From: Escherichia phage HMD-6
Reading direction: 5' to 3' (one strand)
Sequence record: PQ505080.1
DNA: 64,000 nucleotides
The notes under the pieces are model-generated. The model made no database searches and was not told the DNA's origin. It was given only the letters and a program-made list of their open reading frames with translations. Position 1 is the first letter of the stretch. Each line of letters starts with the position of its first letter. The position numbers and the translations under genes are program-made. This document shows positions 9,063 through 11,660 of this stretch, in pieces.

Positions 9063-11660
9063 ATGCGTATTCAACACAACATTGATAACGTATTTCAGAT
9101 GATTGAGGGGCACAGGAAGTGCCTCGATAACAACACAGGTATTACCAACACCCCTACACAAAATAAGCTAGTAAACCCTGATGGTCTTATAGCTGCAGGG
9201 TGGGCAGGTAATAAGATAAATAATGATTGGGCAATGCATGAGTCCCAAGCTGTGTTGATTCTGGGATACATTGAAGCATATAGGGCATCGAAAAGCGATT
9301 TCTATCTGGATAGGGCAAAAGATGCTTGGGAAGCTTACAATAGTCATCTTCTGGGTGCATATGCAGTAGAAAGTAAAATGCAAAGATTGTCCCACTACCC
9401 TCTATCCACAGATGGGATTCCATCACACGGTGGGTTTAAAGATGTGGTGGTGTCTTTTACCAATGGTAGAGGAAAAATTCCAGCAGGATCTCCAACATGG
9501 GGTGAATACCTGGACAAGGCATTCCAAGCGTATAACGGTGTGCTAGGAAGAAACACTGTAGACTCTGATGTTTACGGCGGCACAGATGCTAACCCAAATT
9601 GGACAACATCTGGATTAAGTTGGTGGGTTGAGTGGTATATAGCATGGGATGGTAACCGCTATTGGGCCAACGGTAGCATAGCCGACAGTGGTCATACGTC
9701 TGTAGAGTTCGGCACAATCCAACTGCAGGATAAGGGTGTTACAGGCAGCCACAAGGTAACCTACTGTGTAAGATTGCCACAAGAGCAGGGTGGATCGGTG
9801 ATACCTGCTGGATCCCCTGTAATTGTAAATCCTATAAATGTGGTTGCAGACAATCAAGCCCCAGAGTTGGATGGGGAAGAAATGTGGTGTGACGCTTGTT
9901 ATCAACTCTACACCTTGACAGGTGAGGAAAAGTATTACACAGCGTTTAAGCAGTCTTACAACAAGCTGCTTAATTTCAGCGATATAAATGCCTACGACAA
10001 ACTGTTTAGAAAGACCACGTTAATTAAGGCACCGTTCACAGATGGCACTTGTCTCGTCGCAGGAACAGTTCCTGCCATGAGCAGGGACAGTGACGGGTAT
10101 ATCAATTTTAGAATGAACGCACGTCAGCCTTGCGAAATAATTCAAAAAGGGACTACATACAAGATAGGCAGAGATGCTGAAATTGTTATGAATTTCGGAG
10201 GAGAAGGGGTTCTGTTCCAGCCACACTTCATTCTTAATGATGGTAACAATAACAAAAAACAGTATAGGATAGGTGTCCCTTTTGGAGAGGCAGAGGTAAC
10301 AGAGACAGTTGCCAAGGTTACCGATTTCGTAGAGGTGGTTGGTAAAGATGGTAACCCGTATCTCTTGCCAAAAGAGGAAAACATTGCCGTAAGCGGTGGC
10401 GCTAGTGTTAGTATGCAGTATGATACCGACATTTATAACCACTCCGACAACTTCACCCGTTGCAACATAGCAAGAGGCAAGGTAACTTTCAATTTTGGAA
10501 GAGAGATTTCTTTAAACTCAGTAACTTATCGATCAGATGATGAGATGATACGGGTCAAATTTCTTGACAAAGACCGTTGGTTATGGTATGCTGATCTATA
10601 TGCCACTAATGGACAATGGATAACAGAAACTCTTACCCTAGGTGATTTTAAACTAGACCCAACACAACCTCATCACACAGAAGATGAGATTAAACCTTTC
10701 TTTGCTAACCCTAAAGGAATTACCTCTGTCGATTTCAGTCTGAGCGACAGGCAGATAGGCAATGGCTTGTTCGACCTGTATTGCGTCAACACGCTGCCAC
10801 AATTTTATGTTGCAGATAGGGATGCTTATCTGATCTGGTTTAGTGTATGGATGGCAAGCAAGACAGAATCAACAGCCAAGGTTGGTGATTGCTATGTCAG
10901 AAACTACAAGCAAGGTGCCTACAGGCACACCCCAGGTGTGTTCCCTGCCGGAAAGGTGATAGACAAGGAAAATTATCTCTTAGAGGAAAGGCCAAATTGG
11001 CCCTATCCTGGAATGCAATATCCGGTAGTCTACTGTATGGGTGCGGAAAACATAGATCGTCAAAGATTGGCAAATACAATTGGATTTATGTACGACTCCC
11101 AAGTTTGGTATAATAACACATTTAGAACAGAAGGACCAGTTGCATCCCGCTACGTATGGCAGAGGGGTAATGAGGGGTTGACTGGTTGGTGGGAGATGGT
11201 AGATAATTCTAAACTCCAATCAAGAGCCTTTGTTGCTGCGTGCCGCACACTATATGAGCTTAAGAAACATAAAGAACCTGTTGACGAAAGACTGTTCCTG
11301 TTCTGCCAGAAATGGGCATGGTTCCTCAACAGATTCCAGTCATCTCATTCCGGAAATCTTCCTACAGACTTTAACACCTCAGGAGGATATTCTTATCAAG
11401 ACAGAGGTGACAGGATGTGGGTGGTAGGTGAATGGCTTGCAGGTTGCTGCTGGCTAGGTCTTTGCGGGTATTCAGAGACAATACCTCAAATAGATATTGT
11501 TGTAGAAGCCTGTGTGAAGTTACTGCAAAAGCACCACTTCATTAACGGGGATAATGTTTTAAACGGCTGCTGGGCAGTTTCTGATCCGGTAGGCTATCAC
11601 TCTGGCGAAATCCTTCGCGGTCTGGGACTTTATGCTCAATACCGTGGATTGTACCTTTAA
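9063..11660 (+). CDS. tail-associated protein, candidate glycan depolymerase
   Basis: 865 aa; Trp/Tyr-rich segments ('DWAMHESQAVLILGYIEAYRASKSDFYLDRAKDAWEAY', 'GEWLAGCCWLGLCGY') suggest an alpha/alpha-toroid glycoside-hydrolase-like fold; lies between fibre genes. Confidence 0.35.
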   Translation: MRIQHNIDNVFQMIEGHRKCLDNNTGITNTPTQNKLVNPDGLIAAGWAGNKINNDWAMHESQAVLILGYIEAYRASKSDFYLDRAKDAWEAYNSHLLGAYAVESKMQRLSHYPLSTDGIPSHGGFKDVVVSFTNGRGKIPAGSPTWGEYLDKAFQAYNGVLGRNTVDSDVYGGTDANPNWTTSGLSWWVEWYIAWDGNRYWANGSIADSGHTSVEFGTIQLQDKGVTGSHKVTYCVRLPQEQGGSVIPAGSPVIVNPINVVADNQAPELDGEEMWCDACYQLYTLTGEEKYYTAFKQSYNKLLNFSDINAYDKLFRKTTLIKAPFTDGTCLVAGTVPAMSRDSDGYINFRMNARQPCEIIQKGTTYKIGRDAEIVMNFGGEGVLFQPHFILNDGNNNKKQYRIGVPFGEAEVTETVAKVTDFVEVVGKDGNPYLLPKEENIAVSGGASVSMQYDTDIYNHSDNFTRCNIARGKVTFNFGREISLNSVTYRSDDEMIRVKFLDKDRWLWYADLYATNGQWITETLTLGDFKLDPTQPHHTEDEIKPFFANPKGITSVDFSLSDRQIGNGLFDLYCVNTLPQFYVADRDAYLIWFSVWMASKTESTAKVGDCYVRNYKQGAYRHTPGVFPAGKVIDKENYLLEERPNWPYPGMQYPVVYCMGAENIDRQRLANTIGFMYDSQVWYNNTFRTEGPVASRYVWQRGNEGLTGWWEMVDNSKLQSRAFVAACRTLYELKKHKEPVDERLFLFCQKWAWFLNRFQSSHSGNLPTDFNTSGGYSYQDRGDRMWVVGEWLAGCCWLGLCGYSETIPQIDIVVEACVKLLQKHHFINGDNVLNGCWAVSDPVGYHSGEILRGLGLYAQYRGLYL

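Follow-up and report, generated by a model that had tools for sequence, protein, structure and literature searches.

A putative adaptor-cargo tail cassette with a six-hairpin glycosidase-type protein, and a separate N4 gp64-like barrel protein, in an rV5-like Vequintavirus

Introduction

Which tail appendages of rV5-like phages act on host surface glycans, and which glycans are these? The question is raised by a stretch of 64,000 nucleotides (the window) of Escherichia phage HMD-6 (PQ505080.1), an rV5-like Vequintavirus, in which two tail proteins of 865 aa (positions 9063-11660) and 690 aa (24266-26338) are encoded. They are of the rV5 gp42/phi92 gp141 type and the rV5 gp34/phi92 gp142 type, respectively, and are referred to as gp42 and gp34 below. 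An earlier note, made from the sequence alone, had proposed that both are virion-associated enzymes degrading capsule or lipopolysaccharide (LPS). Their status as putative virion glycosidases is already found in annotations and reviews. gp42 is a 'tail protein' in FV3, a 'lateral tail fiber protein with glycosidase domains' in Bas49 and only a 'tail associated protein' in the rV5 gene table (PMC3606486); gp34 of Bas49 is annotated as 'lateral tail fiber with glycosidase and deacetylase domains', and phi92 gp141 has been listed as a predicted 'glycosidase' (Latka 2017, PMC5380687, citing Schwarzer 2012). In the accessible literature on the phi92 gp141 type, neither a fold assignment nor a cassette description or an activity was found.

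Vequintavirus and phi92-like phages are favoured for therapy because of their broad host range, and the assignment of genes to appendages in these phages is unsettled. Here, we propose that gp42 is a six-hairpin glycosidase-type cargo carried by gp43, a small adaptor encoded directly upstream, and that gp34 is a separate, baseplate-proximal receptor-binding protein targeting the NGR glycan. We regard this explanation as a whole as probable, if only slightly so. New here are the adaptor-cargo cassette, the fold assignment of gp42 with candidate residues, the clade-specific loss of invariant residues and a correction of the deacetylase label of gp34.

Results and discussion

gp42 is predicted to adopt a six-hairpin glycosidase-type fold

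Both open reading frames (ORFs) proved to be real, as the note had described. A GGAG lies 9 nt 5' of the ATG of the gp42 gene, which starts 1 nt past the stop of the preceding gene, and the start of the gp34 gene overlaps the stop of the gene before it. By megablast, 9063-11660 matched 119 phage records, 117 of them over the full length; the closest was Escherichia phage YP-6 (97.6%), followed by FV3 and many rV5-like phages. The annotated loci of FV3 and EmilHeitz (BASEL Bas49) are collinear with the window, with tape measure, hub and spike genes followed by the tail-fibre region. Aromatic richness, which had been noticed earlier, was confirmed (12.9% and 12.3%, the two highest values of ten tail ORFs tabulated).

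As a single sequence, gp42 gave no match in Pfam (E up to 1) or among PDB sequences (E up to 10); PHROGs places it in phrog_2871, 'tail protein'. A word-indexed protein search, even with a profile, returned 6-7 relatives; an exhaustive profile search found 363 cluster representatives with E of 1e-3 or lower, 165 of them with E of 1e-30 or lower. These 363 clusters, from 526 phage genomes, constitute a six-hairpin tail-protein family, some other members of which are fused to siphovirus tail-tip proteins (Phage_min_tail, Prophage_tail, Phage-tail_3). When a profile of 52 family sequences was searched against PDB sequences, GH76 (E 3.6e-6, three hairpin repeats), cellobiose 2-epimerases (~1e-3) and a 'six-hairpin glycosidase' were obtained, and one distant family member showed weak Pfam matches to Glyco_hydro_76 and C5-epim_C.

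An AlphaFold2 model of gp42, built on an 8-sequence alignment, contains a twelve-helix (alpha/alpha)6 barrel. Helices 59-95, 269-305 and 663-861 have a predicted local confidence (pLDDT) of 83-96, and the helical parts are interrupted by two beta-rich regions, 101-268, which is poorly modelled, and ~325-615 (pLDDT 70-90). Together with the matches to GH76 and cellobiose 2-epimerases, the model upholds the earlier guess of an alpha/alpha toroid, and the six-hairpin glycosidase-type assignment is accepted here as a prediction, with the quality of the model flagged below. Foldseek matches of the model were mostly jelly-roll proteins, because the beta insertions dominate; a D-glucuronyl C5-epimerase was among them (probability 0.97-0.99). 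The second insertion matched jelly-roll proteins, an agarase module and SGBP-B, all with low TM, and PHROG 23426 matches aa 482-580 within it. It is probably a carbohydrate-binding or jelly-roll-like module. In Erwinia phage Coenus, a separate 502-aa 'tail protein' (L006, 7978-9483) is encoded two genes upstream of the six-hairpin gene and matches the beta-sandwich insertion only (family profile positions 316-607, E 1e-41); insertion 2 therefore also exists as a free-standing module.

Candidate residues were sought in the conserved positions of the 52 sequences. The region of E60 has the consensus a-T-t-E-g-Q (E in 48/52, Q62 in 49/52) and the region of D270 the consensus g-n-A-x-D-a-e-x-W-f (D in 48/52), the window protein reading MHESQ and ELDGEEMW at these motifs. 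Q680 (52/52), R721 (50/52) and E849 (47/52) are further conserved positions, and E60, D270 and E849 are located at helix starts in the model. As comparison system we used the inverting (alpha/alpha)6 glycosidases of CAZy GH8 and GH48 (clan GH-M), for example E. coli BcsZ, which has TTSEGQ at its catalytic acid E55 and SASDGDVW in the GH8 signature region. On a greedy hhalign path both gp42 motifs are collinear with those of BcsZ, a match at the level of motifs only. No counterpart of the GH8a base motif was found in the six-hairpin family, no GH8 chain appeared in the profile search of PDB, and Pfam Glyco_hydro_8 was not matched at E up to 1. GH8/GH48 are the closest to gp42 in fold and motifs, and gp42 may function like a clan GH-M enzyme and may descend from one. 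Membership of CAZy GH8 itself is not claimed, for want of significant sequence similarity. For a large and uncharacterised tail-protein family, a fold and candidate catalytic residues are thereby offered.

A small putative adaptor gene accompanies the six-hairpin gene

At each annotated phage locus examined, the six-hairpin gene is preceded by a small gene that touches or overlaps its start. The loci were taken from rV5-like phages, the phi92-like PaulScherrer, Salmonella SE4, Erwinia Coenus, the Serratia podovirus Kaonashi, jumbo phage 121Q, PJNS034, Vibrio Vp_R1 and D533, and Salmonella MET_P1 and SeKF_80. When the small proteins of six unrelated phages were aligned, 13 residues were invariant in the last ~100 aa (14 over the whole proteins, counting M1), and the N-termini were unrelated: that of the window phage is a Tail_spike_N domain (Table 1), and Phage_T7_tail (E 4.6e-9) was found in one of the six adaptors scanned, attributed to Kaonashi. 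A hidden Markov model (HMM) of the C-terminal domain, which itself has no Pfam or PDB match, recognised the ORF that immediately precedes the six-hairpin gene in 13/13 annotated loci, with E 6e-19 to 1e-30 at five loci left out of HMM building. Among 80 six-hairpin loci from IMG/VR, four of which are cut by the contig end, it matched the upstream ORF in 67 of the 76 assessable loci, and in the remaining nine the six-hairpin ORF has its own N-terminal extension of ~180 aa.

The simplest reading, drawn from this gene linkage, is an adaptor-plus-cargo appendage, in which the variable N-terminus fits the virion and the conserved C-terminus holds the six-hairpin protein. gp43 carries a recognised virion-anchor domain and its gene lies beside that of the proposed cargo, as in K1-5/SP6 gp37-type adaptors, G7C gp66-gp63.1 and CBA120 TSP1-4, where a small virion-anchor protein is encoded beside a separate enzymatic or receptor-binding subunit. 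Unlike in those systems, the cargo would be a six-hairpin protein and not a trimeric beta-helix spike, and the shared element is the ~100-aa C-terminal domain. In the HMD-6 virion, the N-terminal domain of gp43 would anchor the adaptor to the baseplate periphery, and gp42, a barrel with two beta-rich insertions, would form the cargo subunit of the tail appendage. Such a portable cassette could serve the engineering of receptor-binding proteins.

A search for adaptor-cargo fusions revealed none save an odd metagenomic protein of 293 aa (P0184), whose first ~195 residues match the six-hairpin N-terminus and whose residues 200-284 match the adaptor C-terminal domain. This module order is the reverse of the usual gene order, so that P0184 may be a rearrangement or an assembly artefact.

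Invariant residues are replaced in the Vequintavirus clade

About 30 positions of the six-hairpin protein are identical across phi92-like, Loughboroughvirus, Erwinia, Serratia, jumbo 121Q, Vibrio and Burkholderia members. In the Vequintavirus clade, represented by the window protein, P0002 (80% identity) and P0003 (56% identity), 11 of these positions, at which 14 other members from phi92-like, Salmonella, Erwinia, Serratia, Vibrio and Burkholderia lineages do not differ, carry replacements, namely T58M, T59H, W274M, F629A, W643R, G645N, Y651M, D703N, W715N, G717K and M833L. The clade retains E60, Q62, D270, D678, Q680, Y683, W699, R721 and E849. Of 77 highly conserved positions, the window protein has 54 in common with the family, which ranks it third from the bottom among the 52 sequences. 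phi92 gp141 and its BASEL homologues (bas49_0025, bas60_0025) belong to the same family (34.8% identity over the full length for the PaulScherrer homologue), and the gp141 gene, like that of gp42, directly follows a small gp140/gp43-type gene; the phi92-type protein keeps all family-invariant residues, in contrast to the Vequintavirus type.

Because of the 11 replacements, the catalytic competence of Vequintavirus gp42 is uncertain. Most family members probably bind and cleave a conserved, not serotype-specific, host surface glycan via an acid equivalent to E60, and gp42 of the Vequintavirus clade may have either an altered specificity or a binding-only role. In the stricter form of the latter, it would be a pseudo-enzyme in which the six-hairpin scaffold serves as lectin-like binder or as the arm of a branched fibre, cleavage having been lost. 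The replaced residues and the low number of matched positions speak for this, as does the 2026 cryo-EM study of phi92, in which fibre II as a whole and the proximal arm of fibre I are left unassigned. That study screened only fibre-like predicted structures and never mentions gp141 or gp142. The retained residues listed above and the strong purifying selection on the gp42 gene point the other way. Moreover, GH8 subfamilies can shift the catalytic base to another position, so that loss of D703 need not abolish catalysis. We consider the pseudo-enzyme possible but not likely.

Several observations weigh against the proposed six-hairpin glycosidase-type cargo. The 11 family-invariant residues lost in the Vequintavirus clade include D703 and three Trp. 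gp42 has no match to a Pfam glycosidase family, the model is only moderate overall (mean pLDDT 68, pTM 0.54), and Foldseek against PDB did not recover six-hairpin glycosidases with it (TM at most 0.14). Comparison by hhalign of the family with BcsZ alone, with 80 BcsZ homologues or by a barrel-only sub-alignment was not significant (P 0.05-0.19), and for this reason gp42 is not filed under GH8. The contact between adaptor and cargo has been deduced from gene linkage, and enzymatic activity is reported for no member of the gp42 or gp34 families. Finally, no 865-aa protein is listed in the accessible part of the 19-protein rV5 mass spectrometry (MS) table (PMC3606486, Table S5). The text of the same paper names gp42 among the proteins detected by virion proteomics. 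The W70 virion proteome contains no member of the six-hairpin family.

gp34 is an N4 gp64-like barrel protein

gp34 gave clear domain matches: TIM-barrel_NCTSP (E 2.6e-80) and NCTSP_N were recognised by Pfam (PF23845 and PF23844, 270.5 and 51.6 bits at a curated cut-off of 27 each). At the N-terminus, Calx-beta (PF03160) reached 26.5 bits against a gathering score of 27 (E 6.9e-6), four of the closest homologues have a precomputed PF03160 match, and weak PDB matches to NCX1 Calx-beta domains were obtained. The top PDB sequence match of the whole protein was N4 gp64 (9lc0_M, E 4e-24), and the model (pLDDT 94.8, pTM 0.91) structurally matches a solved member of the N4 gp64/gp65-type module. This module is the non-contractile sheath of phage N4 (PDB 9lc0, 9yf4), in which gp64 and gp65 form a heterodimer; gp34, by contrast, is a single chain with an additional Calx-beta-like domain, belongs to a contractile-tail baseplate and forms no podovirus sheath. 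gp34 was detected in the rV5 virion by MS, with 4 peptides, 18 spectra and 10.3% coverage (PMC3606486, Table S5).

Many of its 1,479 homologues are fused to DUF2460/TIGR02217 tail proteins of Sphingomonadales and relatives. Most are ~770 aa long, and the named examples are all Alphaproteobacteria (Sphingomonas, Erythrobacter, Qipengyuania, Sphingorhabdus, Govanella), which suggests that tails of prophage or gene-transfer-agent-like type carry this barrel module there.

In 57/57 aligned sequences of the gp34 family, YDD308-310 (strand 1), H334, Y335 and GMS337-339 (strand 2), S386 and E388 (strand 3), Q451 and GEPWWW453-458 (strand 4), and E568 and Y570 (strand 6) are invariant. Enzymes of clan GH-A have an NEP acid/base motif at strand 4 and a nucleophile that ends strand 7. 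The predicted (beta/alpha)8 barrel of gp34 resembles clan GH-A-like barrels (GH42, GH5) and the GH153 domain of PgaB/BpsB in the invariant Glu that ends strand 4 in GEP. Unlike in clan GH-A, no acidic residue was found on strand 7, the other invariant carboxylates being on strands 1, 3 and 6. A sequence-level match of gp34 to PgaB/BpsB GH153 or to GH-A-like barrels was not obtained, and hhalign of the family against E. coli PgaB was not significant. The four invariant carboxylates lie on the C-terminal face of the modelled barrel, an arrangement more suggestive of a hydrolase than of a deacetylase site.

This bears on the glycan (poly-GlcNAc-type) deacetylase activity attributed to gp34 in BASEL records and later papers. 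YDD, HxxGMSH and DYDW of the family loosely resemble motifs 1, 2 and 4 of CE4, and a Phyre2 search had matched a protein of this type to 'poly-GlcNAc deacetylase' (PMC8594841, S5F legend). Neither the NodB fold with its Asp-His-His metal site nor Pfam Polysacc_deac_1 was found in gp34, and the structural likeness to PgaB is to its C-terminal hydrolase domain and not to its deacetylase domain. A deacetylase is hence very unlikely, and the label of this putative NGR-binding protein should be corrected accordingly. In the S5C legend of the same paper, a 'component with sugar deacetylase domain' is located at ~8,000 in an alignment that begins with the tape measure gene. By window coordinates this is gp42, and the N4 Gp64 homologue gp34 would be found near 22,000-24,000; the S5C legend and panel F may refer to different genes.

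Conserved glycans are the likely targets

Vequintavirinae, phi92-like phages and N4 all need wecB and nfrB, that is, the NGR glycan (Sellner 2021, PMC8669472), and N4 Gp64 has been aligned with the gp34-type protein of Vequintavirinae (Maffei 2021, PMC8594841). In a 2026 preprint, homologues of phi92 Gp142 were identified as NGR receptor-binding protein by comparative genomics, a 'GMSHY' k-mer was stressed and convergent evolution was proposed (bioRxiv 10.64898/2026.04.02.716166). In our alignment GMS is present in all 57 sequences, Sphingomonadales tail proteins included, which argues for a family-wide barrel motif and not for an NGR-specific determinant, a point that bears on the interpretation of receptor-prediction models. 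Full-length barrel homology to N4 gp64 likewise favours common ancestry over convergence. We therefore keep the literature's designation of gp34 as putative NGR-exopolysaccharide binder. It would act as a receptor-binding protein separate from the cassette, combining the Calx-beta-like domain, the beta-sandwich and a glycosidase-like TIM barrel to target the NGR exopolysaccharide that Vequintavirus infection needs.

The earlier note had instead proposed capsule or LPS depolymerases. In this reading, gp42 and gp34 would degrade capsule or O-antigen and set the host range. Both proteins have glycosidase-like folds in a tail-fibre gene context, and phi92 relatives are known for multiple capsule-degrading spikes. 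However, both genes hardly vary among 116-119 Vequintavirus records, whose hosts belong to many serotypes, and it is gp41, gp37 and gp27 whose allelic variation tracks host structures (PMC8594841). In addition, Vequintavirus phages plate on K-12, which is free of capsule and O-antigen, and there need wecB/nfrB (PMC8669472). The beta-helix of classical tailspike depolymerases is present in neither model, no pectate-lyase-type Pfam match was obtained, and ~30 residues of the putative six-hairpin site are unchanged across phages ranging from Vibrio to Burkholderia, arguing for a conserved substrate. A role as capsule or O-antigen depolymerase is thus highly improbable for this pair, and conserved glycans (NGR for gp34) are the likely targets rather than capsule or O-antigen. 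Of the broader claim of polysaccharide-degrading enzymes, the glycosidase-like folds stand; no CAZy family is assigned to either protein.

Separate or joint action of gp42 and gp34

If NGR is the glycan of gp34, both proteins might act on it jointly in one appendage, for instance one binding and the other cutting. Two independent protein clusters do combine a six-hairpin and an NCTSP-type module in a single chain, P0138 (aa 13-947 plus 965-1542) and P0156 (aa 278-1190 plus 1207-1788). In phi92-like phages the gp140-type adaptor, gp141-type six-hairpin and gp142-type barrel genes are adjacent (pairs seen in bas60_0025/0026, L149/L150, L201, L203, L207 and L222), and NGR dependence is common to these phages and Vequintavirus. 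Against joint action, the N4 gp64-like gene that follows immediately in phi92-like phages lies 12.6 kb downstream in the window, and an NCTSP-type gene was present within 8 kb in only 2 of 80 metagenomic six-hairpin loci, by which constant co-occurrence of the two proteins was rejected. The host distributions of the two families also differ: six-hairpin cassettes are common in phages of Salmonella, Vibrio and Erwinia, which are absent for the gp34 family among the matches listed, and N4 has the gp64/gp65 module, with no N4-like phage for the gp42 family among the matches listed. We consider joint action unlikely and retain separate roles for the gp43-gp42 cassette and gp34. An IMG/VR scan for the fused protein P0138 revealed adjacent-gene versions only.

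Globular proteins of the gp141/gp142 type are obvious candidates for the unassigned phi92 fibre density. A more far-reaching and rather doubtful possibility is that gp43/gp42 is an undescribed mobile two-component module, with anchors swapped between myo-, podo- and jumbo-phages, a GH8/GH48-like cargo and a docking domain of ~100 aa, which together with the N4 gp64-like protein would form the phi92-type arm or fibre density and process NGR.

Features and neighbouring elements of the window

Table 1. Positions of the adaptor, gp42 and gp34 and of their domains in the window; fold elements are predicted.
Feature	Position	Strand	Remarks
Adaptor protein, 222 aa, rV5 gp43/phi92 gp140 type	8393..9061	+	Tail_spike_N PF18668 and conserved C-terminal domain
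Adaptor N-terminal anchor, aa 51-105	8543-8707	+	Pfam Tail_spike_N PF18668, E 2.1e-10
Adaptor conserved C-terminal domain, aa ~123-222	8759-9058	+	Alignment across six unrelated phages
gp42, 865-aa six-hairpin tail protein	9063..11660	+	rV5 gp42/phi92 gp141 type
gp42 barrel segment 1, aa 1-100; helices 2-22, 59-76, 79-95	9063..9362	+	pLDDT 90-93 for aa 61-90
gp42 motif HESQ (family consensus TTEGQ), E60 codon	9240-9242	+	Within barrel segment 1
gp42 beta-rich insertion 1, aa 101-268	9363..9866	+	pLDDT mostly <50, short strands; conserved G/P positions in family
gp42 barrel hairpin 2, aa 269-305	9867..9977	+	pLDDT 85-94
gp42 motif LDGEEMW (family consensus NAxDAExWF), D270 codon	9870-9872	+	Within barrel hairpin 2
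gp42 beta-sandwich insertion 2, aa ~325-615	10035..10907	+	Strands at pLDDT 70-90
gp42 barrel C-terminal half, aa ~640-865	10980..11657	+	Most helices pLDDT 83-96
gp42 C-terminal helices 663-687, 715-735, 742-761, 782-800, 809-824, 843-861	10980..11657	+	AlphaFold2 model
gp42 E849 codon	11607-11609	+	Conserved residue
gp34, 690-aa N4 gp64/gp65-type tail protein	24266..26338	+	rV5 gp34/phi92 gp142 type
gp34 Calx-beta-like beta-sandwich, aa 1-95	24266..24550	+	Pfam PF03160 borderline; strands in model
gp34 NCTSP_N beta-sandwich, aa 108-284	24587..25117	+	Pfam PF23844, E 8.9e-14
gp34 (beta/alpha)8 barrel, aa 299-658	25160..26239	+	Pfam TIM-barrel_NCTSP and model

Between the stop of gp42 (11658-11660) and the start of gp41 (11696), a perfect 6-bp GC hairpin (GGGGGC tgttt GCCCCC) followed by TTT only is located at 11665-11684. 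It was not called by the terminator scan because its T-run is short, and it could be an attenuating or RNA-stabilising element. A strong intrinsic-terminator-like site is present at 16474-16493, 3' of a 110-aa ORF that follows gp41, with an 8-bp stem of which 7 pairs are GC, followed by TTTTTGTTTG; this suggests that a gp43-gp42-gp41-ORF110 transcription unit would end there.

The gp41-type fibre (11696-16135) has 1479 aa in the window and in EmilHeitz, 1266 aa in FV3 and 1272 aa in rV5. It bears a Tail_spike_N anchor (E 1.2e-9), as does the 222-aa adaptor, so that the two proteins may share a docking site or compete for it.

GC skew and AT skew are negative from ~36000 to 44000 and become positive again after ~44 kb, consistent with a block of minus-strand genes after the gene of a 1878-aa fibre. 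Lastly, 18-23 GenBank records named 'Campylobacter phage' (host Campylobacter jejuni; for example MG065647, MG065682 and MG065656) show 94-98% identity to genes of rV5-like and phi92-like coliphages, and their host labels look doubtful.

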